Assembly (NCBI GenBank): GCA_934193095.1
Contig: CAKPUX010000002.1
Location: 17,863 to 81,862, forward strand
From: an uncultured Dialister sp.
GTDB lineage: Bacteria; Bacillota; Negativicutes; Veillonellales; Dialisteraceae
Reading direction: 5' to 3'
DNA length: 64,000 bases
Shown here: piece after piece, positions 477 through 45,076 of the stretch
Position numbering within the stretch: position 1 is the stretch's first letter
How the letters are laid out: every line of letters begins with the position of its first letter
Position numbers and translations under genes: made by a program
Notes under the pieces: generated by a model
Told to the model about the DNA's origin: nothing
What the model saw: only the letters and a program-made list of their open reading frames with translations
Database searches by the model: none

Positions 477-505
477 TTGACTGTATGACTATCATACAGA
501 GTACC
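477..505 (+). promoter_or_regulatory. Promoter (-35 TTGACT) with palindromic Fur-box-like operator in the spacer, copy 1
   Basis: TTGACT at 477-482 is followed immediately by palindrome GTATGActaTCATAC (483-497). The same architecture occurs at 8920-8948 and 13895-13925. The -10 hexamer is not clear by eye. Confidence 0.55.
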
Positions 506-782
506 ATGCATGTAAATCATAAAAGGAAACGAATGGGGAATACTGGTGAGAATCCAGAGCTGTCCTGCAACCGTATGGGGAAAAGAAGCAGTGTTACGTC
601 TCTCACAAAGAGCTGCTTCTTTGAGGAACTCAGTCGGAGTGCCATGAAATTTCTTATATCCTATGAAAGTAAGCTGTAAATTTTACTTTTATATCAAAGA
701 CCTGCGAGGTATGGGTTGGATATCTTTTGCCGTTTTTAGCGTGCCAAAAGGATAGTCCAATGCATACCTGGCAGTTTTTTTT
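505..782 (+). promoter_or_regulatory. Cobalamin (B12) riboswitch-like leader with intrinsic terminator, copy 1
   Basis: Core GGGGAATACTGGTGAGAATCCAGAGCTGTCCTGCAACCGTATGGGGA (534-582) matches the cobalamin aptamer consensus as I recall it (GGGAA..GGTG.GAA.CC....C.G..C.GC.AC.GTA). A 10-bp hairpin lies at 582-591/613-622. A B12-box-like AGTCGGAGTGCC lies at 632-643. A long hairpin 702-730/745-774 is followed by T8 (775-782). Confidence 0.7.
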
Positions 783-883: not shown

Positions 884-3800
884 ATGCAAAGAAAGTGGGT
901 AAAACGGATGGTATTGGCGACCCTGTTTTTGGGAGGGGGCGCATTATTTCCTGCCGGGCAGCAGGCGCTGGCACAGGATGAGGCGGCTACTACAGGCCGT
1001 TCCTATGCGGTTCTGATGGGAGACGAGGATGTGACGCTGAGCGGCTATAAAACATCCAATGTCTATCTTTGGAAGCATGAGAAGGAAGCTCCGGATCAGT
1101 TGATCGGCGGGTCGGTGAAGGTATCCAGTGCCGGCTTACAGAATTCAGGTGACAAGGCAAGGATCACACTGGTCACCGACAGTGATGGGTTAGATCTGTC
1201 CAATGACGCCCAGGTGAAACAGGTGCTGGGGGCTCTGGCAGATAAATTGACATACACCGCATATACCAGGGGCGAAAAAAATCTGGAAGGCACCGCAGAA
1301 ATTTATGAAGGCTTGACCTTTGCTTCCGCTTCCAAGAAATTGTCTGCTTTGGATTTTGATGAAACTACGGGCAAGGCACAGCTGGCTGGAGAGGTCAAGA
1401 CCCCGTATTCCGGTGTCTTAGGTGTCGATGATGAATATGAAAAACGAGGCATCAAACAGGCCGATGGGACGTATCGCTTCCAGGAAGATGCGGTGATTCA
1501 CCCCGGCTTTAATATCACAAAGGATGATAATTACCTGAGAGATTTTGCCTCTGTGATGATTGGCAAAGATACCACCATTGATATGACAGGTCATAATCTG
1601 GATGTCATCATGCATGGCACGATTTATAATGGCGGCGGTTTTACCAATCGTGCGGCAGCTTTGTATGTACCGGGAAATGCGACCTTAACCATTAACAATC
1701 CGGGACAGATCCGTCTGGATACGGACTCTGACTATTATTACTATGCCGATATTGGTGCCATGAAGGAAGACAGCCATGTGGTCATTCATAATGATGACGA
1801 TCCAGCCCATGCCGTAGTGATGCGCGTCACTACCCCACTTAAAGGATATGAAATGAATGTGACTGCGCTGAAAACATTTGCAGGGACCATTGATATTGAC
1901 GGATTGGTCGATATTTATACCAATGGAGGATGGGCGACCAATGCAGCCAGTGGACGGATTTCTATTGGTGGCGGTTCTATTGTGACGCAGGCCTATAGTA
2001 GTGTCACCGCTCGAAGCGGGGGCGTGATGAACGTCAATGTATCGGGGTCTGTAGAAAAGGGATTGACGCCAGGAAATCATACGGTCAATATCACGGCGAA
2101 AGGAGCCACTTCTTGGGATAAAAATAGTTATGCTGCCTTGGCTTCTATGGGAGCCTGGGTAGGTGCAGACACCAATGCTACAGTAAATGCGGCATTGACG
2201 ACGGCAGATTCTACTTTGTGCGGGACAATCAAAGAAGCGGCTGGTACTCGTGATGAAGATACAACTGGTGTTCGTCTTTTCCTGCAGAATGGTGCACAAT
2301 GGACCAATAAGGGATCTTCTTCGATGCGTCATTTGTATGGCGGAAAAGATGCGGCGCATGCTGGGTATATCGATATGTCAAAGCCGGCAAACTCCAACGT
2401 CAATTCTGATCTGACGATTGCCAATTACACCGGAAATACAGTGATTTATTATAGCCAGGAAAGAGGAAGAAAAATCCAGGGAGGAAATATTCACATCGGT
2501 CATGCCGAGATGACAGATGGAAAGAAAGCCTCCATTACGATTCGTACCGATAGCAAGGGAATCAGCCAAAGCAAATTAACCAATGAAAGTTTCATGAGGA
2601 ATATGCTGAATACATTGGCTAATAAATTGTACTATGCGGCTTATGCGGAGGGGGAAAACAATCTGAAAGGAATAGTACAAATTGCTGAAGGGTTGACCAG
2701 CCAGAGTGTTTCAAGGGAAGAAGAGATTCACTTTACCAAAGGCGGCAGTGGCTATGTGGAAGGCTTTAATCAGAAACAGACCGATTTTACCACGGCTTTG
2801 ACTTGGGATATGACCAAAGATGTTGATTATGTAAATGCTAATGTACTGCGGGAAAAGGATAAAGCGACGTTTACAGAAGACACAAGTATCACCGTCAATG
2901 ATGAAGCTGCTATGCAGGCAAAAGGGGGGGATTTCGTAAAGATTGATGCCAAGCAAATCAATTTTAATTTGAAGGCAGCAGGTATTCAGGGTAAGGGAAT
3001 TGAAGTAACTGGTGAAGGCACGGAGTTTGATTTGAATAATCCAGGAGACGTTGAAATTGATGCGTCGACAGGTATAGTGACAGATGGTTCAAGGGCGGAC
3101 TTTGAGTTTAGTGGGGATAACTCTAATATTACCTTGCATCATGCAAAGACTGGTATACTAGCAACAAATAAATCTAATATTCTTATCAAGAATAAATTGG
3201 GTACTACTACCATAAATAATGAAAATACCGATGATTCTACTTTTGTTGGGGTGCAAACTCAAAATGGGGGATCTATTATAATAGCCGGACGGGCGAATAT
3301 AGACGCTGGCGCAGGGACTGCGTTAGCTGCGTTAGGAGGACGTATTGATGTCAATCATGGCGCTACGATTCAAACAAATGGAAGTACAGCGCTGGTAGCA
3401 GGTAATGGTAGCAGAATTTCTATCGCATCTTATAACTTTAACAAGCCAGCAGATATTTCTATTGATGCAGGAGATGGTTTTGCTATCGATGCTAGTGATG
3501 GCGGTTTTACCATTGGTAGTCAATCTGGTAGTCTTCGAACAACTAACGGTACAGTAAATATAAAAGGACATATCAAACTAGGGAAAGGCTATGGCACTTT
3601 AAATCTGACTAAAGAAAATTCCATTTGGACGGGTACGGCTGTGGATGGTACTGATGATGGTAGCGGGGTATTGCATCTCGCTATGGAACCGGATGCAGTT
3701 TGGAATCATGTAGATAAGGATGGTGATGCCGGGAGTGAAGTGAAGGTAGAGTTAGAAGGTGCAAGGTATATCGGATCTTCTGATGATCAGATTACCGTTT

Positions 3801-6800
3801 TGCAAAATAGTAAAAAGGGCATCCATTTTAAGGAGATTAGTCAAGTAGATGGCACGCTCAGACTTGTATTTGCCCATGAGGCAGATTCTCCGACTTCTAT
3901 CAAAGGTGGAAATATCACTATTGATACGGTAAGTACCCGGTATGTGGGTGGTACCGCTAAAGTTTTGGCTGTAACCGATAGTGATGGCATCAATATGTCT
4001 GACGATACCATGGTGGGAAATGTATTAAAGGCGTTAGCCAAGAAGATCACCTATACCCATCCGGAAGAAGCTAAATTAGTCGGGAAAGTAGGGATAGCAG
4101 ATGGCTTGACCGCCAAGAGTGCTATGCTGACAGAAGGGTTTATTCGCTTTGACCCGGATACGGGGGTAGGCAGCTATACACCACAAATGGTGGATACGTT
4201 TACCCGCTCCATGACGGGTGATGAGGCCTACGACAAGATTTATACGGATCAGGGGGTTCGCCAGAGCCAGTTCCTGTATTCCCTCGGGAAAGATACCACC
4301 ATCACCGCCGATAAATCCATGGATTGGAAAGTCAACAGTAATAGTAATGTTGTGCAGATTGTGGGACAGGGACATACGCTGCATCTGGATGCTGAAACCG
4401 CAGGTATTTATATCGGGAATGAAGAGAAAGATACTTCAAAACGTACTCAGCTGGAATTTACAGAAATGCCAGACCTGAATATAACAGCTGGTACAAATGG
4501 TAGTGGGATCCTGGTGAAAAACAGTAGTGCGAACATTGATCTAAAAGATAGCAGAATGCATATAGCAAGTAAAGATGGTGCAAAAGGTTTTGTCGGGATC
4601 AAAGTCGTAGAAGATCGTGATGTGGGAGATACAAAGGCAGGAGATACCAGTTTAAGTGTAGATGGCACTCTGGATATAGAAACGCCAGAAGGAATCGCTC
4701 TTTGGCTCGATGGAGGGAAAGGCTTAAGTCTTCTTAGTCCTGCTAATGTGATTCATGCAGAGGGCGGTACGCTGCTCAAAGTGACTAAGAGTCAGAACAA
4801 TAGTCAAGTTTCCATCAACGGTAAACAGTTAGTCGGAGACCTGGATCTTTTGGGAGCTACTGGCGGTACATATCGGATCACTTTAAATAACGGTGCTACC
4901 TGGACAGGCGGTATTGTTAACGACGTAGCGAAATCTGGCGCAGTTAGTCTTGATCTTTGGAACGATCAGTACAATATCACACCTACCGTATGGACTTATC
5001 AGTGGGAACAGAAAGATAAAGCACAGGATAGCTATATTCACACGGTGGAAGGATGGGCTCCTGGTATCGCTGAAAGTGCTATCTACATGAAAGCGGACAC
5101 AAACTTGACTATCGGCATGCTAAAACGGGGAATCCGAATCCTCTACGATCATGATGCTTCAAATCCAACGCAAATCCTTGGCGGAAATGTAACCATCAAA
5201 GAAGCAAAGAAAGTCGATCCGCAGACCACCCTTTATGTACGGACGGACAGTGATGGGATCAACATGGCAGATGAAACGCAGGTATCCGGTGTACTAAATG
5301 CCCTGGCTCAGAAAATCTACTACAAAGGAACGCCAGAAAACCTGGATAGCTATGCGGAAATCGCAGAAGGCCTGACTTCCGCTTCTGTGCTGAAAACAGG
5401 AAAATTTACCTATGACGAAACAACATATCAGGGTCATTTCTCTGGAGCGATCGAGACGCCTGGTCAGGATGGTACGTTATTTGTTACGCCTTTGTATGCC
5501 CCAAAAAGCTCTGGAAAGGATGAAAATAATACGGCCTATGCCAATGCAGGTGTCCAGCAGGATGGCAAGTACTTCATTTTCCGTAAGGATTCCAGGCTTC
5601 AGATTTCGCAGAGCGGGGAAATGCCTTACACCAGTGCTATCGATGCTTCCAATGACACTGGGGGATATGCAGCCATCAAGATGGACTTGACAGATCATCA
5701 GCTGGATGTACATATCGACGGTGGAGAAGAGGGTCTCAATGAAGCTGTAGCAGGGATCAAAGGGGTTGGCTGGAATGTGTCTGCCCAGAATGGTACCCTT
5801 CATATAGAGGCATCCAATGCCAAGGGGGATGCCATCGGTGTACAGACGGCTGGAAAATCGGAAACTTCTTCCATTATCGATTTGAAAACATTGACTCATA
5901 TTGATGCAAAGACTGGTTTCGACGTGACGGGTGGTACGGTCCGCGTCAATGCAGGAACTATTCATGCGGATACTCTGGGCAGAGTCGGTGCGAATGGCAT
6001 CCTGTCTATCGGAAATACGGGAGATGCGTCTGCCGTATGGACGGGCGACATGTCTCAGAGCGATGGACAGCTGGATATGAACCTGGATGGGGAAGATTCT
6101 ATCTGGACAGGCGCTATGGACTGGACCGGCGGCTCGAACAGCCTGATGCTTACGAATGGAGCGACCTGGAAAAATACCGGGGATTCCCATGTGGGACAGC
6201 TCGTCAGCGGCATTACGAGAAGTGTCGGCGGCGTGATTGACATGACCGGAGATTCTGGAAATATCCAGCTCGATAAGTTCAGCGGAAATGCTTCTATCCT
6301 GTACAAGCATGATGCCAATGACCTGACGAAGGTGTATGGCGGCGATGTGACTGTCACCAGCGCAGAGGCCGGCTCTCGGATCACATTGATCACGGATCGG
6401 GATGGTATCAGCGATGATGGACTTCGTGAAAAGGAAACGGTAAGCTCCCTTTTCCAGGCGATGGCAAACAAGCTGTACTACACCAATTATCAGACAGAGG
6501 GCAATCTCACCGGCATTCTCCAGATTTCGGAAGGGCTGACGGCGAGAGCGGCTTCCAAGGTCACCGGGGCTATGGAATTTGCCGGAGAAAATGGACAGGG
6601 GCAGTATAAAGCGGATAGCGCTTCCCCGTCGATTTATCCGAAAGACCAGCAGAAGGAAACCTTTACGACGGTCATGACAGGTAATGAGAGCACGGATAGC
6701 GAGTACCTCGATGGCGGTGTCATGAAGGTCGGGAATCCTTCGGATATCCGTTATGAATTCACCAAGGATAAGACCGCTGTAGAATTGGCTACGGCTTCTG

Positions 6801-8698
6801 ATACGGCGATCCAGGCGAAAGATACGAAGTATTCCATCGATATGAATGGCCATGATCTGACCATCAAAAACGAAGGGAATGCAGGTATCACCGTAGATGG
6901 CAAAGCCTTGACTTTCCGCAACGGAAAGACCACGGAGCTTACGGCGGACAAGGTCGGTATCGAAGCGAAGAACGGCGGCAATTTCAGTACCTATAACGGC
7001 GGCGTGTGGAATATCAGCGCCGATACAGCGGCGAAGGCCGATGGGGCAGGCAGTTCTATTTCCTTAGGCGCCGGTAAGGTCCAGAGCACCACGCTGGCAG
7101 AAGCTTCGAACGGCGGTACTATTGAGTTCGTTGTACCGAATGACAAGACAGCGACGGAATATGTGGGGGATGTGAAGGTCAATGACGCGGACAGTAAGGT
7201 AAGATTAGGCATTGCTACCGAAGGCTCTACCTGGACAGGCGGTCTGACCAATCATGGCGGCACCTTTGAAATGGGGCTGCAGAATGGCGGCGTATGGAAC
7301 AACACGGGAAAAGAAGAAGCCAATATTTCCCTGCTGGATGCAACGGACACCGGAAATGGCGTGATCTTCCAGAACAAGGACAGCGGCGGTATTACGGTAG
7401 ACCAGTTCCGTGGTCATGCAACGGTGCTGTATAGTCATAATGCAGCAGATCCGACCGATATTCTGGGCGGTGATGTGACGGTCAAGAAGGCCGCCGGCAA
7501 TAGCTTCCTGACCCTGCGGACTGATCGCAGCGGCATCAATATGGGCGATTATCATGGCGTAGAGAATGTGCTCGATGCGCTGGCCAAGAAACTCACCTAT
7601 ACGGATGCGGTCAATGGTGCGACCAACCTGAATGGCCGGGTAGAAATCGCAGAGGGGCTCACGGCTGCGAGCGCTGCTAAACAGTATGGTACGATCGATT
7701 TCAATAAGACCACGGGACAGGGTAGCTATAAAAAGAACAGCATGACGCCAGGCGAGGCGGATCCGGATATCATCTGGGGCAGCTCGGAAACCATGATGAT
7801 GCGTGGTGCGAAGAATGCCATGAATACGTCTATGTTGTCCTGGAGAAGCAATGTTTCCGATATGACGACTCGTATGGGAGATCTCCACTATGGCGTGGAT
7901 GATGGGATCTGGGCAAGAACCTTCGGTGGAAAGATCAAGTACGATAAAGGAACCTCTTCCTTCAGCAATAGCTTCTGGGGCGCGCAGGTCGGTGCGGATA
8001 AGCTCTTCAAGAATGGCTGGCATTTTGGCGGTGCTTTCGACTACAGCAAGGGAAGTGCCAAGTATGAAATGGGCGGCGAAGGGGATCCCAAACTCTACAC
8101 CTTCTCGCTCTATGGCACGAAGCTTTTCGAGGATGGTCAGTATGTAGATATCGCTGTCAAGGCAGGTCACACGACAAACAGCTATACCGTATACAATGAT
8201 ATGGGACATAAGCTGGATGGGGACTACAGTGCTAATGGCTTCGGCATTTCTGCGGAATACGGAAAACGGTTTGGCGGGGCCGATGGCTTTGTGGAACCAC
8301 AGCTGCAGCTGACGCTTTCCCGCCTTGGAAGTGCAGACTATGATGGCATCAGTGACTATACCGGCGGAAAGAAAATGCACGTCAGCCAGGACGGCATGAC
8401 CAGCTTCATCGGCCGTCTGGGTGTAGCCGCAGGAAAAACAACGGAACGCGGTAATTTCTATCTGAAGGCAGGCTTGCTCCATGAATTCAGCGGAAAAACA
8501 AGCACGACATTCAGCGCAGAAAATGAACCGACCTCTACCGTGGATCAGGACTTTGGTGATACCTGGGCAGAATTGACTCTGGGCGGTACCTATAGACTGT
8601 CTCCTTCGAGCATGCTTTATGGTGATATTACCAAGAGCTTTGGTGGAGATTACAAGGTACAGTGGAAGGCCAATGTGGGTGTCCGCTTCACCTTCTGA
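884..8698 (+). CDS. Giant classical (type Va) autotransporter, 2604 aa
   Basis: RBS aaaggagaaagg lies upstream. Signal peptide MQRKWVKRMVLATLFLGGGALFPAGQQALA/QDE. The C-terminal ~300 aa have autotransporter linker and barrel hallmarks (MMRGAKNAMNTSMLSWRSN..RMGDL, GIWARTFGGK, FWGAQVGADK, terminal VGVRFTF). The passenger is built from six super-repeats. Confidence 0.9.
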   Translation: MQRKWVKRMVLATLFLGGGALFPAGQQALAQDEAATTGRSYAVLMGDEDVTLSGYKTSNVYLWKHEKEAPDQLIGGSVKVSSAGLQNSGDKARITLVTDSDGLDLSNDAQVKQVLGALADKLTYTAYTRGEKNLEGTAEIYEGLTFASASKKLSALDFDETTGKAQLAGEVKTPYSGVLGVDDEYEKRGIKQADGTYRFQEDAVIHPGFNITKDDNYLRDFASVMIGKDTTIDMTGHNLDVIMHGTIYNGGGFTNRAAALYVPGNATLTINNPGQIRLDTDSDYYYYADIGAMKEDSHVVIHNDDDPAHAVVMRVTTPLKGYEMNVTALKTFAGTIDIDGLVDIYTNGGWATNAASGRISIGGGSIVTQAYSSVTARSGGVMNVNVSGSVEKGLTPGNHTVNITAKGATSWDKNSYAALASMGAWVGADTNATVNAALTTADSTLCGTIKEAAGTRDEDTTGVRLFLQNGAQWTNKGSSSMRHLYGGKDAAHAGYIDMSKPANSNVNSDLTIANYTGNTVIYYSQERGRKIQGGNIHIGHAEMTDGKKASITIRTDSKGISQSKLTNESFMRNMLNTLANKLYYAAYAEGENNLKGIVQIAEGLTSQSVSREEEIHFTKGGSGYVEGFNQKQTDFTTALTWDMTKDVDYVNANVLREKDKATFTEDTSITVNDEAAMQAKGGDFVKIDAKQINFNLKAAGIQGKGIEVTGEGTEFDLNNPGDVEIDASTGIVTDGSRADFEFSGDNSNITLHHAKTGILATNKSNILIKNKLGTTTINNENTDDSTFVGVQTQNGGSIIIAGRANIDAGAGTALAALGGRIDVNHGATIQTNGSTALVAGNGSRISIASYNFNKPADISIDAGDGFAIDASDGGFTIGSQSGSLRTTNGTVNIKGHIKLGKGYGTLNLTKENSIWTGTAVDGTDDGSGVLHLAMEPDAVWNHVDKDGDAGSEVKVELEGARYIGSSDDQITVLQNSKKGIHFKEISQVDGTLRLVFAHEADSPTSIKGGNITIDTVSTRYVGGTAKVLAVTDSDGINMSDDTMVGNVLKALAKKITYTHPEEAKLVGKVGIADGLTAKSAMLTEGFIRFDPDTGVGSYTPQMVDTFTRSMTGDEAYDKIYTDQGVRQSQFLYSLGKDTTITADKSMDWKVNSNSNVVQIVGQGHTLHLDAETAGIYIGNEEKDTSKRTQLEFTEMPDLNITAGTNGSGILVKNSSANIDLKDSRMHIASKDGAKGFVGIKVVEDRDVGDTKAGDTSLSVDGTLDIETPEGIALWLDGGKGLSLLSPANVIHAEGGTLLKVTKSQNNSQVSINGKQLVGDLDLLGATGGTYRITLNNGATWTGGIVNDVAKSGAVSLDLWNDQYNITPTVWTYQWEQKDKAQDSYIHTVEGWAPGIAESAIYMKADTNLTIGMLKRGIRILYDHDASNPTQILGGNVTIKEAKKVDPQTTLYVRTDSDGINMADETQVSGVLNALAQKIYYKGTPENLDSYAEIAEGLTSASVLKTGKFTYDETTYQGHFSGAIETPGQDGTLFVTPLYAPKSSGKDENNTAYANAGVQQDGKYFIFRKDSRLQISQSGEMPYTSAIDASNDTGGYAAIKMDLTDHQLDVHIDGGEEGLNEAVAGIKGVGWNVSAQNGTLHIEASNAKGDAIGVQTAGKSETSSIIDLKTLTHIDAKTGFDVTGGTVRVNAGTIHADTLGRVGANGILSIGNTGDASAVWTGDMSQSDGQLDMNLDGEDSIWTGAMDWTGGSNSLMLTNGATWKNTGDSHVGQLVSGITRSVGGVIDMTGDSGNIQLDKFSGNASILYKHDANDLTKVYGGDVTVTSAEAGSRITLITDRDGISDDGLREKETVSSLFQAMANKLYYTNYQTEGNLTGILQISEGLTARAASKVTGAMEFAGENGQGQYKADSASPSIYPKDQQKETFTTVMTGNESTDSEYLDGGVMKVGNPSDIRYEFTKDKTAVELATASDTAIQAKDTKYSIDMNGHDLTIKNEGNAGITVDGKALTFRNGKTTELTADKVGIEAKNGGNFSTYNGGVWNISADTAAKADGAGSSISLGAGKVQSTTLAEASNGGTIEFVVPNDKTATEYVGDVKVNDADSKVRLGIATEGSTWTGGLTNHGGTFEMGLQNGGVWNNTGKEEANISLLDATDTGNGVIFQNKDSGGITVDQFRGHATVLYSHNAADPTDILGGDVTVKKAAGNSFLTLRTDRSGINMGDYHGVENVLDALAKKLTYTDAVNGATNLNGRVEIAEGLTAASAAKQYGTIDFNKTTGQGSYKKNSMTPGEADPDIIWGSSETMMMRGAKNAMNTSMLSWRSNVSDMTTRMGDLHYGVDDGIWARTFGGKIKYDKGTSSFSNSFWGAQVGADKLFKNGWHFGGAFDYSKGSAKYEMGGEGDPKLYTFSLYGTKLFEDGQYVDIAVKAGHTTNSYTVYNDMGHKLDGDYSANGFGISAEYGKRFGGADGFVEPQLQLTLSRLGSADYDGISDYTGGKKMHVSQDGMTSFIGRLGVAAGKTTERGNFYLKAGLLHEFSGKTSTTFSAENEPTSTVDQDFGDTWAELTLGGTYRLSPSSMLYGDITKSFGGDYKVQWKANVGVRFTF

Positions 8699-8730: not shown

Positions 8731-8781
8731 TATAACAAAAAACTCGTGAATCGTAATGAGATTCACGAGTTTTTTGTTATA
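8731..8781. terminator. Bidirectional rho-independent terminator
   Basis: Palindrome TATAACAAAAAACTCGTGAATC ... GATTCACGAGTTTTTTGTTATA, 33 nt after the autotransporter stop. Confidence 0.85.
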
Positions 8782-8919: not shown

Positions 8920-8948
8920 TTGACTGTATGATAATCATACGGAATATC
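8920..8948 (+). promoter_or_regulatory. Promoter (-35 TTGACT) with Fur-box-like operator, copy 2
   Basis: TTGACT at 8920-8925 followed by GTATGATAATCATAC (8926-8940). The core ATGATAATCAT equals the centre of the classical 19-bp Fur box GATAATGATAATCATTATC. Confidence 0.6.
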
Positions 8949-8949
8949 A

Positions 8950-9200
8950 TTTCCTTAATGAAATGGTATGGGGAATGCTGGTGTAAATCCAGAACTGTCC
9001 TGCAACCGTATGGGGAGAAGGTTCATTGCACGTCTTTCACAAAGAAATGAATTCATCGAGGAACTAAGTCGGAGTGCCATGCTTTTTCGTAACTATCACA
9101 TCATGATGGTGTTCAAAGATCTGCGAGGTATGGGTCGGATAGAGTGATATTTCTTTTGTGATGCTCAAAATCCGGTCTATACTTGGCAGCTTTTTTATTT
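8950..9200 (+). promoter_or_regulatory. Cobalamin riboswitch-like leader with intrinsic terminator, copy 2
   Basis: GGGGAATGCTGGTGTAAATCCAGAACTGTCCTGCAACCGTATGGGGA, B12-box-like AGTCGGAGTGCC, and terminator arms 9121-9140 / 9170-9189 followed by a T-run (9191-9196). Relative to copy 1 the internal stem sequence differs while the loop ACGTCT.TCACAAAGA is conserved (covariation). Confidence 0.7.
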
Positions 9201-9233: not shown

Positions 9234-12200
9234 ATGAAAAAGGAAATGAAAAATTGGCTTCGCAGTAGCATTGTTTTGGCTTTGGCGGCGGGTGCCTTGG
9301 TCGGAGGTTCGTCTGTGCAGGCGGCTAATACGTATGATATGACCCAGGGGGAGTTTCTGACCAATGGACTCAATTATACGACTACGAACACGTACCAAGA
9401 TAGGGATACATTGATTTATAAATGGGATGCAAAAAACAAGAAAATCATTGGGGGAAATGTTAGCGTTGGTCAAGATGTCTTGAATTCATCTTATGATGGT
9501 GTCAATGTGAATCTGGTGATTGATGCATCAGATTTGTCGAGTATGAGCAACGATGATGTCAAAGAAGCTATGACGCAGTTGGCCTCTAAAATTAAAAATT
9601 ATGCAGAGACTAACCGATATCGGCTGAATGCCTATGTACAAGTACGAGAAGGATTGACCGCTTCTTCCAAGGTTCTTCGTTCTTATCAGTTGGAATACAA
9701 AACTCCTGGTTGGAATGATCCAGATCAAGAAATCAAACCAGATGCAAATGTCGGAGATCTAGAGGAGGGTGTCTTTGCCACTTCTATTATCAATGGCGCA
9801 GCAGGCAGTGAATATGAATTTGATGAAAATGGGGTTTGGCGATATAAAGGCTTTAGAGGAGCAGTGGATGTTAATTTTACTACTCCCGCTACAGATAATG
9901 TGTATGCGGCTATTCGTACAGATGGGAAAGATACAGGAATTTCAAATCTGACGGAAAATAGTTCGTTCAATTCTACTTTACAGATGAATGCAGATGCGTC
10001 TTCTTTAGCTGATTCCAAAGCTTACTTGGCGTATAGTGGGACAGGAAATCAGGTCAGCGTGATTGCTAATGAATTGAATGCTACGGTCAAAGGGACGGAA
10101 GCAACTGGGATTTATGCAGGGCATGAAAATGGTGATACCACGAGTAAGGTAGTGGTTAATGGTGGCATTAATCTGACATTGGATGGTAAGAAAACTACTG
10201 GTGTTGAAGCAGGAAAGAATGGGGAAGTCTCCTTATTAACTGGTCAGAAGACTTATAATAGAACCAATACTGTTAGTATTGAATCACCCAATGGTCATGC
10301 CGTATATGCACATGACGGAGGTAAGGTTACTTTAGATGCTGTGAAAGTCAAGAAAGCAGATAAATCTGCCATTTACGCAGAAAAAGGTGGCAACATCACA
10401 CTGGGCATTGTAAGTGGGTTAACAGATGAATCGATTAGTACAGATGACGATGCAGATAGTCAGGTCTCTTTATCTGTGGATGGAAATTACACAGGGCAAG
10501 TTAAGGGGAATGTCAATGTAGCCTTTACTAAGGGTTCTACTTATAAGGCAGATAATGATAGCATTGGCACTGTGACTTTGAATGGTTCCACATGGGTGGG
10601 TTCCATGTTGCGTGATAATGGCTCGGTATCGATCAATTCTAATGGTCAGTGGAATATGGGAGAAACTGGTCGAGATATCAAATTATCTGCTTTGACCGGC
10701 GGTAAAACGACGGCCAGTCGTGGCTATGTGAAGATGGGCAGTGATAATCTTCACATCGGTACTTACAGTGGAAATGGCACATTTATTTATGATCATGATG
10801 CTTCTGATCCGACGAAGATTCTTGGTGGGAACATTACTATTGAAGAATCTAAGCCACTAAGTCTTTCTAGCTCTGGTTTAGGGGATAAGGGTGATTCTAC
10901 GGCAGAGGGAACTTCCGCATCTACGATTGCTATTGCTACCGATAGTGCCGGTATCGATACCACGGATAATGCTTTAGTTGAAAAAGTGCTGGATAATTTG
11001 GCAAGTAAATTGGCTTATCTGAACTATACTAAAGGGGAACGCAACTTGAGTGGTACCGTAGAATTGTTGGAAGGACTGACCAGTAGTTCTGTGACCAAGC
11101 ATTTTGCCAATCTGACTTTTGATGAAAAGACTGGTCAGGCCAAACGGGATTCGGAAGTCTATCATCCCTATGTCACCTATATCACAGGGGACGCTTCTAT
11201 CGATACGGCCTATGCAGATGCTTACAATGCAGATACCAATACCTATGATTTCAATCAGGATGTATTTATTCGAGAAGCAAAGTCTACAGATTCCGTTTGG
11301 ACTCGTGGCAGCTTGTACTATGGGCTGATTACCAATTATGGGACAGAATACGAGAAGCCAAGTAAAGGTTGGGGTATGTTTAAGAGTTCTAAACCAGATG
11401 GTGGCCCTTCCTATACAATGGATCTTCACGGAAATAATTTGACTGTTGATTTGGAAGCCTTCCCTGAAGCAAATGCCACAGGAAGCCAGCCTATGTGGAC
11501 TACAGCCGCTATCATGGCAGCTCGTGAAGGGACCATTACAATCACCAATCCTGGGGAAATTCATCTGACTTGCAATGCCAATTACTATTATGGTAGTGCC
11601 ATTCGCGCTTCGACCAGTGCTGGTACGACGAATGGTGCCCATGTAATCATTGAAAATGATCAGGGAAATTTGAAGGACCATATCGTATACCTTCGTGGTG
11701 GCATTGATACACCAGGGTATCAGCTTGATTATCGTACTATTGAGACTTACGGGAATGCTAAAGCTAAGGATATAACACAAGAAAACTCGGTATACATCAA
11801 AGGCCTCGTAGACATTGAAGCAGATAAGCATGCGGCTGTTTTTGCACGAGGCGGTTGGATTCGTCTGGGTGGTGGTCGTATTTCTGTGGATAATTACGAT
11901 GCGCTTTGGACGGCAGGTAAGGGTCGCATTGATATCAATATGCTGGTCGATGATGATGGCACTGTGAAAGGTGCTGGCAGTAATGATTTTGTACTGAAGG
12001 GTAATGCAGTGACCGCTACTCCTTACTATGGGAATAAGGGGACATTGAATTTGGCCTTTACCACAGCAAACTCCAGGTTTGATGGGGAAACTGGAGGTAC
12101 CGGTGAACAGAATCTCTATGTACAAAATGGAGCGGTTTGGAACAATACACCAGAATCGTATAACATCTGGAATTCCGGTGAAGTTGTAAAATCAGATCTA

Positions 12201-13652
12201 GCAAGTATTGCTACCCATTTATACGGGGGACAAGATGCAGCGCATACAGGTTACCTGATTCAGGACAGTGCGAAAGATTTAACAATTAAGAATTATAGTG
12301 GCTTTATGAAAGCCTATATAGCACGGGATAAATCCAAATCTGCAGGTGAAGATGGAACTGATGCAACTAGCCAGTTTAGTCAAAAAGGAAATATTATTAT
12401 CGAAAAAGCGGATCAGACAGATGGACAGAATGCAGATTTCACTTTATTGACAAGTCAGGAAGGCATTGACACTTCCAATAAAGAAGAAGTACTTTCAGTA
12501 ATGAAGGACTTGGCTGGCAAGCTGATCTATAAGGAGGCCACTGACAGTGAAAATCCGGCAGTTCATCTTAATGGACATGTAGGCTTGGCAGAAGGGCTGA
12601 TTGCTGGTTCAGTAGAAACGAGATTGGCTGATTTGACGTTTGATGGGACGTCCGATGGAACGGGTAGTGTCGTGGATAGTACCTATCAGATTCCGAAGAA
12701 TTATCCGGCTATCCTGTATGGACCTAAAGAAACTGCTATGATGCGTGGTGCTAAATCTGCCATGGCTTCTACAGCTATGATTTGGCGGGCTATCAATAAT
12801 GACGTGGAACGCCGGCTGGGCGATTTACGTGTAGGCAATGCTGAAAAGGAAAATGGTATGTGGGCTAAAGTGGGCGCTGGGCGTATGTCTTACGACGAAG
12901 GAACCACAGATTTCCGTACCCGCTTTAATGAATATCATATCGGTTATGATCATGCCGTAGGCAATGCAGGATGGAGAGCTGGTGCTTCTGTCAGCTACAT
13001 CGACGGGAAGAGTACCTATGAAAAGGGGACTGGTGATAATGATGTAACCAATTTCCATGTATATGCTACAAAGACCATGCAAAATGGGGCTTACTTGGAT
13101 ATCATTGGCAGAGTTAGCCATGCCAAGAATAAGTATCGTATTATGAACGATGCAGGGAATAAACTGGACGGCGATTATGGAACCAATGGATATGGTCTAT
13201 CTGCAGAATATGGGAAACGGTTTGTCAAAGATAGTGGATTCTATGTAGAACCACAAGCAGAACTGACTTGGGGTAGATTATCTGGCAAATCTTATGATGC
13301 TGCTAGTGATTATGGCGGAGGCCGTGCATTGCATGTCGATCAGGATGATTTTAATAGTTTGATTGGACGTATCGGTGTTGGATTTGGTTTAGTGAAAGAA
13401 CGAAGCAGCATCTATGCAAAACTTTCGCTTCTCCATGAATTCCAAGGTGGTTTTGATACACAGTATACGGCAAAAGGTGAACCTTCTAATGCGACACATA
13501 TGGACTTTGATGGTACTTGGGTATCTGCTATGTTTGGCGGTACATACCAGCTGGGAGACAGAGCCAATTTCTATGGGTATCTGGAAAAGACTTATGGTGG
13601 CGATTTAAAGACCGATTGGCGCTATAATGTAGGACTTCGTTTTACCTTTTAA
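9234..13652 (+). CDS. Classical autotransporter, 1472 aa
   Basis: RBS gagaggag. Signal peptide MKKEMKNWLRSSIVLALAAGALVGGSSVQA/AN. C-terminal translocator (MMRGAKSAMASTAMIWRAINNDVERRLGDL, GMWAKVGAG, terminal VGLRFTF). Three copies of the conserved module occur in the passenger. The central region is homologous to the N-terminal part of the 2604-aa protein. Confidence 0.9.
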   Translation: MKKEMKNWLRSSIVLALAAGALVGGSSVQAANTYDMTQGEFLTNGLNYTTTNTYQDRDTLIYKWDAKNKKIIGGNVSVGQDVLNSSYDGVNVNLVIDASDLSSMSNDDVKEAMTQLASKIKNYAETNRYRLNAYVQVREGLTASSKVLRSYQLEYKTPGWNDPDQEIKPDANVGDLEEGVFATSIINGAAGSEYEFDENGVWRYKGFRGAVDVNFTTPATDNVYAAIRTDGKDTGISNLTENSSFNSTLQMNADASSLADSKAYLAYSGTGNQVSVIANELNATVKGTEATGIYAGHENGDTTSKVVVNGGINLTLDGKKTTGVEAGKNGEVSLLTGQKTYNRTNTVSIESPNGHAVYAHDGGKVTLDAVKVKKADKSAIYAEKGGNITLGIVSGLTDESISTDDDADSQVSLSVDGNYTGQVKGNVNVAFTKGSTYKADNDSIGTVTLNGSTWVGSMLRDNGSVSINSNGQWNMGETGRDIKLSALTGGKTTASRGYVKMGSDNLHIGTYSGNGTFIYDHDASDPTKILGGNITIEESKPLSLSSSGLGDKGDSTAEGTSASTIAIATDSAGIDTTDNALVEKVLDNLASKLAYLNYTKGERNLSGTVELLEGLTSSSVTKHFANLTFDEKTGQAKRDSEVYHPYVTYITGDASIDTAYADAYNADTNTYDFNQDVFIREAKSTDSVWTRGSLYYGLITNYGTEYEKPSKGWGMFKSSKPDGGPSYTMDLHGNNLTVDLEAFPEANATGSQPMWTTAAIMAAREGTITITNPGEIHLTCNANYYYGSAIRASTSAGTTNGAHVIIENDQGNLKDHIVYLRGGIDTPGYQLDYRTIETYGNAKAKDITQENSVYIKGLVDIEADKHAAVFARGGWIRLGGGRISVDNYDALWTAGKGRIDINMLVDDDGTVKGAGSNDFVLKGNAVTATPYYGNKGTLNLAFTTANSRFDGETGGTGEQNLYVQNGAVWNNTPESYNIWNSGEVVKSDLASIATHLYGGQDAAHTGYLIQDSAKDLTIKNYSGFMKAYIARDKSKSAGEDGTDATSQFSQKGNIIIEKADQTDGQNADFTLLTSQEGIDTSNKEEVLSVMKDLAGKLIYKEATDSENPAVHLNGHVGLAEGLIAGSVETRLADLTFDGTSDGTGSVVDSTYQIPKNYPAILYGPKETAMMRGAKSAMASTAMIWRAINNDVERRLGDLRVGNAEKENGMWAKVGAGRMSYDEGTTDFRTRFNEYHIGYDHAVGNAGWRAGASVSYIDGKSTYEKGTGDNDVTNFHVYATKTMQNGAYLDIIGRVSHAKNKYRIMNDAGNKLDGDYGTNGYGLSAEYGKRFVKDSGFYVEPQAELTWGRLSGKSYDAASDYGGGRALHVDQDDFNSLIGRIGVGFGLVKERSSIYAKLSLLHEFQGGFDTQYTAKGEPSNATHMDFDGTWVSAMFGGTYQLGDRANFYGYLEKTYGGDLKTDWRYNVGLRFTF

Positions 13653-13707: not shown

Positions 13708-13741
13708 TCTGGTATGTGTGACTGCTATTTTAGGAGAATAA

Positions 13742-13781
13742 AGAGCTGTGAATTTGAAAGGAAATTCATGGCTCTTTTTTC
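13742..13781 (+). terminator. Rho-independent terminator
   Basis: agagctgtgaattt / aaattcatggctct stem followed by TTTTT. Confidence 0.75.
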
Positions 13782-13894
13782 TTTATGAGGAAGGGGAGAG
13801 TCCTTCACATAGAAGCAGGTGTGATTAGGCAAAATCCTGCACACAATTATTGCCTGTTCGTTGTTGGAGCCTTGATAACCATAAATAGGGGACT

Positions 13895-13925
13895 TGACTA
13901 TATGATGGTCATACGGTTGATACTA
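13895..13925 (+). promoter_or_regulatory. Promoter (-35 TTGACT) with Fur-box-like operator, copy 3 (no riboswitch downstream)
   Basis: TTGACT at 13895-13900 followed by aTATGAtggTCATAc (13901-13915), then ttgatact as a possible -10. The leader to the receptor gene is only about 90-100 nt. Confidence 0.55.
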
Positions 13926-14019
13926 AATAAGAATATAAAGTATAAAAGGATAGGTGTCATATTTTATTTCATGCCCCATATTCATCGAGCAAGAGGGCAA
14001 AATGGAAGGACTGGAGAAA

Positions 14020-16656
14020 ATGAAGAAATGGAATTCATCTTGGCGTAGGGAGTCCAAGAAATCTTACCTAACAATTGGCTTACTGCTAGGAATGATCTCT
14101 ATGGGACAAATGTCTGTGTCCGCTAACGAACCAGAACAGGCGGAAGGACCCATATATACATTGCAAGGGATTACTGTAGAGGCTAAAAGGCCAGATTGGG
14201 AAGCAAAGCTTTCTCCGGGGACTGTCACCGTGATTCGCCCTCAGGATTTCAAAGGGGAGCAGAAGACGCTGCCGGATATGCTGAAAACGGTGCCTGGTGT
14301 CCATGTGCGTGAAGTGAATGGGCATGGACAGTATACGACGGTCACGGTGCGAGGCTCTACCGCGGCACAGGTCGGTGTCTTCATGGATGGGATACTGACA
14401 AACCTCGGGGGAGATGCTGCCGTCGATATTTCCACCCTTCCGGTCAAGAATGTGGAGCGTATTGAAGTGTATCGCGGCTATGTGCCGGCACGTTTCGGCG
14501 GGACTTTTATCGGCGGTGTCATCAATATCGTGACAAAGAAACCGGATAAACCCGGCATTTCTGCAGAAGTTGGAAAGAGCTCTTATGGCGGGAAGAGTAT
14601 GTCCCTTGAGTACACGGCTCCACTGGCAAGTGGTACGTTGATGGTGGCAGGAAATTATGAGTCAAGTGATAACGATTTTTCCTATACCAACTATGCGGCG
14701 GAAAGATATATCCCCTATTTGGAAAAGCAGATTAAGGGTTACCAGGGTGTAGTTGATAATTTCAATAAGGATAAAATAGACTTTTTTACAGAACCTACCA
14801 AAAATGATTGGGGGGAGGAAGGAACTCCGCTGGTTTCACTTACGCAGGATGAAATCGATCATTTCAAGAATAATCCGAATGACTGGCTGGAGTTTGTTCG
14901 CGGAAGCGGAGAGTATAGCCTTGCAGGAAAATTGACAGAGAATGCAGGAGAGACAGGCCTTGATGCAAAGGATATAGCGGATTATAAGACACAGGCAGAT
15001 CCGGAAACGAGCCCTGAACTAGCTGAATATAACAAAACAACCAAAGCGTATATCGACAAATTGAAGGAAGCCAAGGAGGCTAAACGCTGGCGCAAGTATA
15101 ACGATTATAAAAACAGCAGTGCGTTGGTCAAGTGGCAGAATGAGAACTGGGTGGTGAAAGGTTCCTGGAATCGGATTGACCGCCATTTGCCGGATGGACT
15201 TTGGGGTGGGAACGCGAATCAGGCAATCGAGAACAATGCTGTGGATTTGCGTGACCTCTATCGATATGATAGCCGCCATCAGAAATTGGATAATACGGAG
15301 GTGATGGTGCAGAACCGGAATCAGAATGGCCGTTTGGAATGGGGATGGACGGCGGACTACCTGCATCAGAAAAAGAGTTACCGGGCGGAGCATATTGTAC
15401 AGGATGCAGTGACTGATTTTGATGAGCTCAATACACCTCTTCGTAAATGGAGCCGTTATACATCCAATAAGTATAATCTGCAGCTGGACGGGACGTACAA
15501 GATTTCCGAGCGAAACATGCTGGATTTCCAAACGAATATGTCTCATGAACGGTTAAAAATCAATGGGTCTTTGATGGATAAGGTGCTGGGGGATTCTGAT
15601 CTTGGGAATGTTTTAGGACAGACCAGGAATCGATATGATCAGGATATATGGAATGTGCAATTGCAGGATACGATTACGCTGGACAAGAAGTCCAGCTGGT
15701 TTCTGACACCAAGTCTTCGTTACAACCGTTCAAAAGTCACTGGCTACAGTGACGGGAAGCGATTCGCGGAAAATCAGGAAAACCGATTCCACTGGATTCA
15801 TCCGAAGGACAGTCAGGTGGATGATAAGGTAACCTGGCAGTTGGGCTTAAAGAAAATAGTCAATGACCAGCTGACGCTTCGCATGACAGGCGGGACGTAC
15901 TATCGTCTTCTTAATATGTATGAGATTGCAGGGGATGGCGCAGGGATTCTTCCGGCACCGAGAAAGGATGCGCAGACTTCTACCTTCCCACTGCCGGAAG
16001 AAGGAAAGCAGTTCGACATAAGCGCCATCTGGAAAGGGAAGCTGCTGCATGCGGATAATAGTACGCAGCTGACATATTTCTGGAGAGACTCGACCAATAT
16101 GCTGCAGCTGGTACGCACCGGGAAAGATTACTGGTCATATTTCAATGATAATCGCGGCAAGGTACATGGCGTGGAATTCCAGTCCAATTTCAGCTGGAAG
16201 AAGGTAGATCTGGATTTGCGGGCCACTTATATGCAGACACATATGCAAAGGAAAAATAGTGCCGTAGGCTATGGTTATTCGGATATCTGGGCTACCTATC
16301 AGCCGGAGTGGGAAGGGAATGCAAGATTGACTTATCGCCCAAACCAGCATGTGGATCTATTTGGCGAAGTCCATTATACCGGTGGTTATTATACGGATTG
16401 CAGTAAAGACCCCAAGGGTGGTGAGTATGCGCATTTGTCAGGGCGGCCGGTTAATGCACTGACGACCATCAATGGCGGTGTGAAATGGAAACCGGCTGAC
16501 AGCTGGCAGTTTACTTTTGGCTGTAATGACATATTCAATAAGGGACCGAAGATGAAGATCCGAAGTAATACAGCTTTTACGGTGCCGGGATACATTAATC
16601 CGGAATTTCCTATCCAGGGGCGGACGTATTATGCATCGATCCGTTATCAATTCTAA
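14020..16656 (+). CDS. TonB-dependent outer-membrane receptor (about 880 aa)
   Basis: Signal peptide ..LLLGMISMGQMSVSA/NE and a TonB-box-like YTLQGITVEA. Plug motifs VTVRGSTAAQVGVFMDGI and IERIEVYRGYVPARFGG..GGVINIVTKKP. Terminal GRTYYASIRYQF. The start is ambiguous (ATG 14002 or 14020); the track start at 13954 is unlikely. Confidence 0.88.
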   Translation: MKKWNSSWRRESKKSYLTIGLLLGMISMGQMSVSANEPEQAEGPIYTLQGITVEAKRPDWEAKLSPGTVTVIRPQDFKGEQKTLPDMLKTVPGVHVREVNGHGQYTTVTVRGSTAAQVGVFMDGILTNLGGDAAVDISTLPVKNVERIEVYRGYVPARFGGTFIGGVINIVTKKPDKPGISAEVGKSSYGGKSMSLEYTAPLASGTLMVAGNYESSDNDFSYTNYAAERYIPYLEKQIKGYQGVVDNFNKDKIDFFTEPTKNDWGEEGTPLVSLTQDEIDHFKNNPNDWLEFVRGSGEYSLAGKLTENAGETGLDAKDIADYKTQADPETSPELAEYNKTTKAYIDKLKEAKEAKRWRKYNDYKNSSALVKWQNENWVVKGSWNRIDRHLPDGLWGGNANQAIENNAVDLRDLYRYDSRHQKLDNTEVMVQNRNQNGRLEWGWTADYLHQKKSYRAEHIVQDAVTDFDELNTPLRKWSRYTSNKYNLQLDGTYKISERNMLDFQTNMSHERLKINGSLMDKVLGDSDLGNVLGQTRNRYDQDIWNVQLQDTITLDKKSSWFLTPSLRYNRSKVTGYSDGKRFAENQENRFHWIHPKDSQVDDKVTWQLGLKKIVNDQLTLRMTGGTYYRLLNMYEIAGDGAGILPAPRKDAQTSTFPLPEEGKQFDISAIWKGKLLHADNSTQLTYFWRDSTNMLQLVRTGKDYWSYFNDNRGKVHGVEFQSNFSWKKVDLDLRATYMQTHMQRKNSAVGYGYSDIWATYQPEWEGNARLTYRPNQHVDLFGEVHYTGGYYTDCSKDPKGGEYAHLSGRPVNALTTINGGVKWKPADSWQFTFGCNDIFNKGPKMKIRSNTAFTVPGYINPEFPIQGRTYYASIRYQF

Positions 16657-44029: not shown

Positions 44030-45076
44030 TCAAAACATTCGGCGATAGCAGGTGTTTTTCCCTTTTCCTTCTTTGGTTAGCTCGCCCGTTGTTACCATTT
44101 TACGAAGAGCTCCTTCCACTGAGCTGAGACTCAGTGCCGGGCAGAGGTTATGGATTTCTTGCTTGGTAACACGCCCGATTTTTTGCTGACAAGCCATTCT
44201 CACTATTTTAAGTGCAGACCGTTTTCCTTCCATAAGAGCGACCCGATCGTCTAAATCCTTATATGCAGCCAAAATGGTTCCCAAGAGAAATTTCATAAAA
44301 GGAATCACATCTTCTTTTCCTTCATGCCAGCCTTTTTGAGAATCTCGAAGAGATTCGTAATATAAACTTTTATTGACTGCAATTTTTGCTTCCAAAGAAA
44401 TATATTTCCCTACAAAGAATCCATTTTGATGCAGTAACAAAGATGTCAGTAAACGGCTCATACGGCCATTTCCATCATTAAAAGGGTGAATGCAAAGAAA
44501 GTCATGGATAAAAATGGGGATAAGAAGAAGCGGATCCGCTATGAAGTTTCCAATTGCCAGATTATAGGTGGCACATAAAGCATCCAGTGCATTTGGGGTT
44601 TCATCAGGAGCGAGCGGAGTAAAAAGAGTGACGGTTTGACCGTTTGAATAAGTAGCATTGATGTAATTTTGAGTTGTTTTTGTACGTCCGGCTACTGGAT
44701 TATTCGTGTGACTATATAAAATCTTATGCAGCTGAAGTATATCATTTTGGGTGATAGGAATGGCATCATAATTTTCATAAATTAACGATAAATCATCGCG
44801 ATAACCTGTAATTTCTTGTTCATTACGGTTCCGGGGCGTCGTTTTTTCTAATGCAAGCTGTCTGAGATGGGTGCGCGTTGTCGTGATTCCTTCAATGGCA
44901 TTTGAAGATTCTATACTCTGAATTTTGGCAATTTCAATCAATTTTTCCAGTTTTGCCGGCCATTGCTTTAAAAATATCTCCTGCTTTCCTGTTTCTTTGT
45001 AAATAGCCGCGATAAGTCCAAGTAAATCGGTATCCCATTTTCGGTCACGCAGCCATGCATAATTAAATGTCCTCAT
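44030..45076 (-). CDS. Fic/DOC family protein with internal inhibitory motif and C-terminal wHTH-like tail
   Basis: Fic motif HPFNDGNGRMSR (HxFx[DE]GNGRxxR) is intact. An N-terminal SNAIEG matches the [ST]xxxE[GN] auto-inhibition motif. Confidence 0.88.
   Translation of the reverse strand: MRTFNYAWLRDRKWDTDLLGLIAAIYKETGKQEIFLKQWPAKLEKLIEIAKIQSIESSNAIEGITTTRTHLRQLALEKTTPRNRNEQEITGYRDDLSLIYENYDAIPITQNDILQLHKILYSHTNNPVAGRTKTTQNYINATYSNGQTVTLFTPLAPDETPNALDALCATYNLAIGNFIADPLLLIPIFIHDFLCIHPFNDGNGRMSRLLTSLLLHQNGFFVGKYISLEAKIAVNKSLYYESLRDSQKGWHEGKEDVIPFMKFLLGTILAAYKDLDDRVALMEGKRSALKIVRMACQQKIGRVTKQEIHNLCPALSLSSVEGALRKMVTTGELTKEGKGKNTCYRRMF

Follow-up and report, generated by a model that had tools for sequence, protein, structure and literature searches.

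In all solved cobalamin riboswitches that we know of, the corrinoid stabilizes a kissing loop between L5 and L13. The P13/L13 kissing-loop hairpin is a described element of these RNAs (PMC9600662, PMC7367189), and the BtuB1–BtuG1 complex of Bacteroides thetaiotaomicron is represented by Protein Data Bank (PDB) entry 8BLW (PMC10404256). In the searchable literature, we found nothing that connects cobalamin riboswitches with autotransporters or BtuG with Negativicutes, and no description of a natural ON cobalamin riboswitch. Here, we analyze a window of 64,000 nucleotides from an uncultured Dialister sp. (GenBank assembly GCA_934193095.1, contig CAKPUX010000002.1, positions 17,863 to 81,862 of the forward strand; coordinates below are those of the window, and all features of the locus are on the + strand). 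In this window, a leader RNA (RS1) precedes the gene of a giant autotransporter (AT1), and a paralogous leader (RS2) precedes a second one (AT2); a TonB-dependent receptor (TBDR) and a third autotransporter (AT3) follow. An earlier note, made from the sequence alone, had read RS1 as a cobalamin-riboswitch leader with an intrinsic terminator before a giant autotransporter, a reading now backed by an Rfam match, an above-threshold paralog, covariation, purifying selection, and Pfam. We propose, with somewhat less than even confidence, that RS1, RS2, and related leaders found in genomes and metagenomes of Dialister-like bacteria, Schwartzia, and rumen Selenomonadales are the first natural ON cobalamin riboswitches. 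They would have arisen through a change that made the kissing-loop hairpin serve as the terminator base, and they would control an undescribed corrinoid-capture apparatus, in which a BtuG-like propeller on a giant autotransporter stalk stands by a BtuB-like receptor, with head-less paralogs in addition.

Aptamer of RS1

The aptamer of RS1 was assigned to positions 521–655 by a match to the Rfam model RF01689 (AdoCbl-II, for adenosylcobalamin), a custom covariance model (R1), covariation, and low diversity. It comprises P1 (524–529/650–655), P3 (533–536/642–645), P4 (543–546/554–557), P5–L5 (561–569), P6 (571–573/635–637), and a P6-extension hairpin (582–591/613–622) with an inner hairpin (600–603/609–612). 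The B12 box, AGTCGGAGTGCC, lies at 632–643. In the full-length model alignment, the core segments and the B12 box (GGGGAAU, GGUGAGAAUCC, CUGUCCUGCAACCGUA, and AGUCGGAGUGCC) follow one another in the correct order. The conserved aptamer core quoted in the earlier note was found at 531–580, and its B12-box-like sequence is present at 632–643. The stem-loop that it had placed at 582–622 is the P6-extension hairpin, which shows compensatory changes between RS1 (GCAG/CUGC) and RS2 (UCAU/AUGA).

Positions 521–652 were aligned to RF01689 across the full model with 31.2 bits, the gathering score being 36.5 (E = 2e-5 in a 521-nucleotide search and 0.0024 in the whole window). RF00174 overlaps RS1 as well, at a lower score that is hidden by the clan filter. 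The note had named a covariance-model score below the gathering threshold as a ground for refutation, and RS1 would fail by this rule, whereas RS2 passes: its positions 8955–9087 score 41.3 bits with RF01689 in a gathering-level scan of the window. The low score of RS1 is explained by its weak outer helix and by the 59-nucleotide P6 extension, which is missing from the AdoCbl-II model, and not by the core. AdoCbl-II riboswitches lack a P6 extension, a trait that does not hold for RS1, where the 59-nucleotide insertion is a covarying hairpin in place of 5 nucleotides in the model. Compared with relatives that score 51–99 bits on RF00174, the P2 hairpin is absent from both RS1 and RS2. By this sequence comparison, RS1 combines the Cbl-I and Cbl-II architectures in reduced form: it has no P2, its P1 and P3 helices are short, and it has kept the 59-nucleotide P6 extension.

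Such a hybrid architecture, with a U in L5 where the classical type has a C, may also suggest that a cobalamin-derived aptamer has switched to another ligand, such as some other tetrapyrrole or a corrinoid that is incomplete, with the same attenuation output. However, RS1 retains the conserved nucleotides of the core and the B12 box, and RS1-type leaders are located upstream of BtuB-like TBDRs and BtuG-headed autotransporters, a genomic context typical of the cobalamin clan. We consider a change of ligand very improbable. In its core sequence and fold, as well as in its kissing loop and context, RS1 is a genuine cobalamin-clan riboswitch, with a corrinoid as its presumed ligand.

The paralogous unit RS2 precedes AT2 and extends over 8920–9196, with a promoter box (8920–8950), the aptamer (8955–9092), a P13/L13 element (9120–9134), a terminator (about 9121–9190), and a U tract (9191–9196). 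RS1 and RS2 align from the promoter-like box via the aptamer to the long hairpin and the U tract. Their overall identity is ~75%, the aptamer core being almost unchanged between them, and the kissing-loop element of RS2 lies inside the terminator as in RS1.

The custom covariance model was built from RS1, its orthologs, and RS2 with an explicit structure (P1, P3, P4, P5, P6, extension hairpin, and inner hairpin), and it gave 88 matches in related loci. In the alignment of these 88 relatives, standard pairs were found in 90.7% of the cells (36–44% with the 3′ partners slid), 30 of the 34 pairs showed changes on both sides, and the covariation score was 0.373 (0.04–0.08 in the slid controls); since the sequences were aligned by fitting them to the structure of the model, these figures lean toward the model, but the margin is large. 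An alignment of the diverged aptamers with MAFFT misregistered P3 and was excluded from the pair counts. Among 12 distinct RS1 orthologs, nucleotide diversity was 0.015 in the aptamer, 0.088 in the linker, 0.081 in the downstream spacer, and 0.113 at the third codon positions of AT1. The aptamer is thus ~8-fold less diverse than synonymous sites and 5–8 times less diverse than neighboring noncoding DNA and synonymous sites, and positions 701–727 are invariant. The matches of the covariance model, the strong covariation, and a diversity far below that of synonymous sites indicate that the RS1 RNA is functional and that its aptamer is kept by selection.

These data also bear on whether RS1 might be a decaying or ligand-blind relic, in which an aptamer devoid of P2 and of part of P1 is left over and the hairpin with U8 is a constitutive attenuator or a remnant. 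A score below the gathering threshold and mismatches in the outer helix would fit this explanation, as would the TBDR operon of the window's lineage, which has lost the riboswitch entirely. The low diversity of the aptamer and the invariant P13 region (701–727) speak against decay. In addition, the core, the kissing-loop element, and the compensatory pairs were kept while RS1 and RS2 diverged, and many diverged leaders have retained the reduced architecture. We regard a relic as unlikely.

Expression platform and proposed mechanism

The aptamer is followed by a linker (656–700), in which 656–661 (AUAUCC) may pair with 718–723 (GGAUAU). Folding produces this helix, and one compensatory change between RS1 and RS2 is consistent with it, a tentative assignment at best. 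RS1 has a variable linker hairpin (662–673/682–693) that RS2 lacks. The P13/L13 kissing-loop element occupies 701–715, with the stem CCUG 701–704/UGGG 712–715 and the loop CGAGGUA 705–711. L13 (UGCGA 703–707) is complementary to L5 (CUGCA 565–569). Relatives with classical riboswitches have a conserved element downstream of P1, ACCUG-CGAGCGA-UGGG-GAGGGGAUUA, and positions 701–715 of RS1 are homologous to its ACCUG-CGAGCGA-UGGG portion. The classical P13 stem of 4–5 base pairs covaries (CCUG/CAGG, UCUG/CAGA, CUUG/CAAG, and CCCA/UGGG), the first loop nucleotides of the classical L13 are complementary to L5, and their flanks covary. Across 103 leaders, pairing in the local P13 stem amounts to 71.5% versus 36–49% when slid, and the L5:L13 contact covaries as C:G, U:A, and U:G.

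The intrinsic terminator extends over 702–782, with the 5′ arm at 702–733, an apical loop, the 3′ arm at 740–774, and U8 at 775–782. The 73-nucleotide hairpin (702–774) is stable, with an arm–arm duplex of −38.7 kcal/mol, and the fold of the whole leader has a z score of −3.85, with none of 200 shuffles as good. The long hairpin ending in T8 was therefore correctly recognized in the earlier note. Its description as a classical attenuation platform was right as to the terminator but not as to "classical", since P13/L13 forms the base of the terminator 5′ arm. The lowest 12 base pairs of the terminator (702–713/763–774), directly before U775–782, consist of the P13/L13 nucleotides. A U-A pair of the terminator in RS1 is replaced by C-G in RS2, and the 3′ arm shows G-U-tolerant changes among the RS1 orthologs. 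In a relative (L002 in our numbering of related loci), the P13 pair 702:714 is changed from C:G to U:A, though 714 is unpaired in the terminator. The compensatory change in the terminator and this change in P13 indicate that both structures are under selection. The 3′ arm in the window is Watson–Crick paired at seven positions where most RS1 orthologs (L001, L011, L028, L087, and others) have G-U pairs or mismatches, and its U tract has two extra U residues relative to the orthologs; the terminator of the window is on these grounds stronger than those of its relatives.

The compatibility of P13 with the terminator was analyzed by folding with P13 locked, a secondary-structure argument that leaves kinetics and tertiary contacts aside. 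The energy of the leader segment rose from −49.6 kcal/mol (free) to −25.5 kcal/mol (locked) in RS1 and from −37.9 to −17.4 kcal/mol in RS2. With P13 locked, no hairpin remained beside the U tract in RS1, RS2, L109, L096, or L117, and no alternative small terminator hairpin formed next to it. In contrast, the terminator was untouched in all three validated OFF riboswitches used as controls (btuB1 and btuB2 of S. sputigena and tonB3 of S. ovata, with sequences as listed in PMC9600662, Table S1). In the control run, one apical-loop U of RS1 was set to A because of an internal U5, which left the stems unaffected. The coexistence of P13 and terminator, a property shared by the validated OFF switches, thus fails in RS1 and RS2. 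Terminator energies ranged from −24 to −47 kcal/mol in RS1-type leaders and from −5 to −18 kcal/mol in the OFF controls. These models indicate that the P13 kissing loop and the terminator are mutually exclusive in RS1-type leaders.

A metagenome scan with the conserved P5–P6 core, a pattern selected for RS1-like cores, retrieved 61 DNA stretches with 62 matches and 54 unique leaders. The first gene was an autotransporter in ~31 of the 62 matches, and a TBDR followed by an autotransporter was found in eight. The terminator 5′ arm starts within −4 to +5 nucleotides of the UGCG motif in 32 of the 35 independent leaders in which the motif is accompanied by a U run. Terminator positions were taken from this motif-anchored analysis; an earlier automatic classification in long windows was noisy and merged antiterminators with terminators. 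A simple promoter and terminator scanner was blind to promoters with a 19-nucleotide spacer and, given the restricted mismatches and loop sizes that it allows, to the long mismatched terminator.

Several related leaders show variations of this layout. In L002 (22136–22330), a further reduced Cbl-like leader (26 bits with the custom model) precedes a second autotransporter; it has AAAAA for GGGAA, a short P6 hairpin, AUGCA in L5, and UGCAA in L13, and its kissing-loop element is the base of a 24-base-pair terminator. In L127 (1822–2130), an RS1-type aptamer before a 2101-residue autotransporter is followed by unrelated sequence in place of P13 and the terminator, and this leader may be a natural platform-loss variant. 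In some lineages, the riboswitch is separated from the gene of the receptor or autotransporter by small open reading frames, which might encode leader peptides, of ~70 residues or ~100 residues starting with MLKYKELK (L124, L126, L134, and L136, about +128 nucleotides from the aptamer core; L012–L019, downstream of the riboswitch).

Here, we propose the mechanism of RS1 based on the leader models. RS1 would be transcribed from the promoter at 477–507 and would govern read-through of the very strong intrinsic terminator at 702–782 ahead of AT1. Two structures would compete for 701–715, namely, the P13 hairpin offering L13 to L5 and the base of the terminator hairpin. When a corrinoid binds, P13 would be locked, the last ~12 base pairs beside the U tract could not zip, and the polymerase would read into AT1 (ON). 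When no ligand is bound, the terminator would form. The predicted sign derives from the ligand-stabilized L5–L13 contact combined with the position of L13 in the terminator 5′ arm. That RS1 is a corrinoid-sensing ON switch acting by terminator disruption, with both ligand and sign predicted from the models, has in our estimate an even chance of being correct.

Receptor, BtuG-like head, and autotransporters

The TBDR gene (13954–16656) encodes a BtuB-like protein of 900 residues with a plug domain. Its best solved relative is Escherichia coli BtuB, matched in the plug domain (E 1e-18); siderophore receptors rank far behind. The best NCBIfam match is the B12-receptor model TIGR01779, which covers the plug region only and reaches 107 bits, the cutoff being 600. 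An exact-sequence look-up of the TBDR returned no record. Homologs, the closest of which are 94–97% identical, were found at 80 genome loci (Dialister-labeled metagenome-assembled genomes and isolates, Phascolarctobacterium, Acidaminococcaceae, Selenomonas, Schwartzia, and Sporomusa). A cobalamin riboswitch lies upstream in 58 of the 69 assessable loci, 53 within 1 kb and five upstream of an intervening autotransporter, and the next gene downstream is a giant autotransporter of the window's family in 45 of 72 assessable loci. Rfam reports RF00174 elements with 51–99 bits before the TBDR–autotransporter pairs in L002, L003, L005, and L006. The TBDR–AT3 operon of the window has a promoter box only and no riboswitch. 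Many of the loci come from metagenome-assembled genomes, and some taxon labels are evidently wrong. Contigs with the locus are labeled Fusicatenibacter, Escherichia coli, Bacteroides, or Segatella (L007, L013, L014, L017, L019, and others), which are probably binning errors on Negativicutes contigs.

AT3 (16667–28864, 4065 residues) consists of an N-terminal propeller, at least seven passenger modules, and a barrel. In some relatives, the riboswitch and TBDR are followed by a protein of ~420 residues with a weak match to chain B of PDB entry 8BLW (E 2e-5). A hidden Markov model (HMM) of such stand-alone BtuG-like proteins matches residues 27–417 of AT3 (nucleotides 16745–17917) with an E value of 1.4e-54. 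The same HMM matches the N terminus of the TBDR-adjacent autotransporters at essentially every locus (E 1e-39 to 1e-86). A profile of the AT3 head searched against the PDB found BtuG chains only (E about 1e-3). AlphaFold2 predicted a β-propeller for the head (predicted local distance difference test [pLDDT] 86, predicted template modeling score [pTM] 0.87). BtuG2 (PDB ID: 8BMX) was its fourth-best fold match (E 2e-7, template modeling scores 0.50/0.62) among other seven-bladed propellers of Bacteroides. The relationship to BtuG rests on remote homology, fold, and context. A stand-alone BtuG-like protein of ~420–460 residues replaces the autotransporter in Sporomusa, Anaerosinus, Anaerospora, and some Phascolarctobacterium loci (L005, 7691–8959; L036, 12736–14058; L039, 12611–13978; and others), and in Anaerosinus gibii, the stand-alone and autotransporter-fused arrangements occur side by side.

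AT1 (884–8698, 2604 residues), recognized as an autotransporter in the earlier note, is of type Va, with a signal peptide, six repeated passenger modules, and a C-terminal β-barrel. PF03797 matches the β-domain at residues 2342–2582 (E 5e-45), and TIGR01414 also matches. AT2 (9234–13652, 1472 residues) is a head-less paralog with three motif domains and a C-terminal PF03797. AT1, AT2, and AT3 are paralogous (30–37% identity over long stretches), and their passengers are built of repeated modules of ~380–500 residues, each closing with a motif domain of ~110 residues (ILGG-V-I...TD--GI...VLNALA-KLYY...IAEGLT-SS) that is not in Pfam. One AT1 module was modeled by AlphaFold2 (pLDDT 85, pTM 0.84) as a right-handed β-helix like those of IgA1 protease, UpaB, Hbp, and pertactin. 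With a C-terminal β-barrel and a passenger modeled as β-helical, AT1 has the features of type Va. Hbp/Tsh are tetrapyrrole-scavenging autotransporters. Searches of Pfam, NCBIfam, and PDB sequences with the passengers matched the β-barrel only. AT1 and AT2 had no match to the BtuG-like HMM, and no profile similarity was found between the BtuG-like head and the passenger modules (hhalign probability 0.1%).

The earlier statement that the regulated gene is neither a transporter nor a B12 enzyme is literally correct, but AT1 is not an orphan cargo, as its family is coupled to riboswitch-controlled BtuB-like receptors. From homology and models, the window encodes a BtuB-like receptor, a "BtuG on a stalk", and two head-less paralogs each with a riboswitch. 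AT1, AT2, the TBDR, and AT3 belong to an undescribed B12-linked outer-membrane system of Negativicutes with a putative function in corrinoid capture. We infer that AT1 is coregulated by corrinoid status with this apparatus. AT1 may provide a second surface for capture or hand-off, serve AT3 as a structural partner, or act as a B12-conditional adhesin.

Regulatory sign

The same cobalamin riboswitch could also be a conventional OFF switch, in which the corrinoid favors the terminator, an unseen antiterminator forms when no ligand is bound, and AT1 is induced by starvation like btuB and btuG. Every characterized cobalamin riboswitch is an OFF switch (PMC11477304), and all 38 reporters scored as functional in PMC9600662 showed repression; none of the riboswitches tested there has an RS1-type platform. 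Homologous TBDR–autotransporter operons in Sporomusa and Selenomonas have classical three-element riboswitches, built like the validated OFF controls. A BtuB-like TBDR together with a BtuG-like head points to an uptake system, and a system for B12 capture is expected to be repressed by B12 and induced by starvation. An unseen OFF mechanism is possible, as antiterminators of validated OFF switches are sometimes hard to see in the sequence, and even in the validated yvrC switch, the ligand-free structure is unclear (PMC7367189). All of this weighs against the ON sign, and it is joined by points against the wider proposal: RS1 scores below the gathering scores of both RF01689 and RF00174, its P1 is weak with mismatched outer-helix pairs, the covariation figures have the lean described above, and AT1 has no recognizable corrinoid-binding domain by the fold of one module (a generic β-helix), the HMM, and the profile comparison.

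The OFF explanation has difficulties of its own. The kissing-loop nucleotides lie within the terminator stem, so that the ligand-stabilized contact and the terminator cannot coexist. The search for an antiterminator between the aptamer and the terminator arm gave best duplexes of −23.6 and −21.3 kcal/mol, which 100 of 300 and 90 of 300 shuffles equaled, and the pairing differs between RS1 and RS2; this candidate was rejected. P13 itself is the only conserved competitor of the terminator. Repression is a serious contender to which we assign a sizable probability, clearly short of even, and ON is judged slightly likelier than OFF.

Promoter boxes and the rest of the window

The promoter-like box of RS1 (477–507) consists of TTGACT (477–482), a 19-nucleotide spacer, and TACCAT (502–507), with a predicted transcription start near 514. 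The spacer contains the palindrome GTATGA-CTA-TCATAC (483–497). Boxes with identical 19-nucleotide spacing (TTGACT-19 nt-TA(C/T)CAT or GATACT) are present at 477–507, 8920–8950, and 13894–13924, the last of which lies ahead of the TBDR with no riboswitch. The spacer palindrome reads (G/A)TATGA-N3-TCATAC across the boxes, its exact core occurs in the 64 kb only at these three boxes, and the box is also found in L001. A 19-nucleotide spacer with an internal dyad recalls MerR-type promoters. The box shared by the AT1, AT2, and TBDR–AT3 units, as a putative promoter, suggests a common DNA-binding regulator with the palindrome as candidate operator. The OmpH/Skp-like gene upstream is closed by a clean terminator-like hairpin at 404–444, AT1 by one at 8745–8775, and AT2 by one at 13740–13777, and the three autotransporter/receptor units would therefore be separate transcripts.

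No B12 genes were found elsewhere in the window, which carries prfA, prmC, sua5, glyA, and genes for SbcCD-like, Fic, HipA-like, and recombinase proteins. Downstream of prfA, prmC, sua5, glyA, and the SbcCD-like genes, the region 44030–54107 encodes Fic/DOC, HipA-like, serine recombinase/resolvase, and SAP-domain proteins and looks like a mobile-element or toxin–antitoxin island. A near-perfect palindromic hairpin at 63410–63489 matches plant microRNA models with 30.7 and 27.8 bits on the two strands, far short of the gathering scores, and is probably a bidirectional terminator.

Comparison with known systems

With the present locus, type V autotransporters would join the regulon of cobalamin riboswitches, and the BtuB–BtuG capture of Bacteroides would have a counterpart in Negativicutes, with a B12-binding-type propeller atop a giant β-helical stalk. 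This bears on the competition for corrinoids in the gut and rumen and provides a hypothesis on the function of hundreds of giant proteins that lack annotation. A kissing-loop partner inside the terminator is a widespread and conserved design. If the sign is inverted, an OFF class becomes an ON class by a simple rearrangement of the platform, and a true ON switch would be a natural B12-inducible genetic switch.

As in other cobalamin riboswitches (CL00101), RS1 has the four-way-junction core P3–P6 (GGGAA...GGUG...AAUCC), the B12 box, the L5–L13 contact, and an intrinsic-terminator platform of the Firmicutes type. It differs from them in having no P2 and short P1 and P3 helices, like Cbl-II, together with a 59-nucleotide P6 extension, like Cbl-I, and in having an autotransporter as its target. 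Moreover, L13 of RS1 is in the terminator 5′ arm, whereas theirs belongs to a separate P13 upstream of the antiterminator and terminator, which predicts the opposite sign. The two-element logic of RS1 resembles that of the adenine ON riboswitch pbuE of Bacillus subtilis, where a ligand-stabilized contact overlaps the terminator 5′ arm and blocks invasion by the 3′ arm. In RS1, however, the overlap is with a kissing-loop partner outside the aptamer and not with the P1 helix, the ligand is of another class, and the switch is a prediction from sequence.

Like the BtuB–BtuG/BtuH loci of Bacteroides (PMC10404256), the Negativicutes loci have a riboswitch-controlled receptor gene followed by a gene for a surface β-propeller. 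The AT3 head has homologs in the stand-alone BtuG-like proteins of Negativicutes, with BtuG2 (8BMX) as one of its best fold matches. In contrast to BtuG of Bacteroides, a lipoprotein lid, the Negativicutes propeller is the N-terminal tip of an autotransporter stalk of 2,000–4,000 residues. In sequence, it resembles Bacteroides BtuG marginally (one blade, E about 1e-3 to 2e-5), and AT1 and AT2 have no propeller. AT1 shares with type Va autotransporters the signal peptide, the right-handed β-helix passenger, and the barrel of the 12-strand type (PF03797). It differs from them in its family's passengers of three to seven or more modules of ~380–500 residues with a motif foreign to Pfam, in the absence of a protease domain, and in its control by a cobalamin riboswitch.

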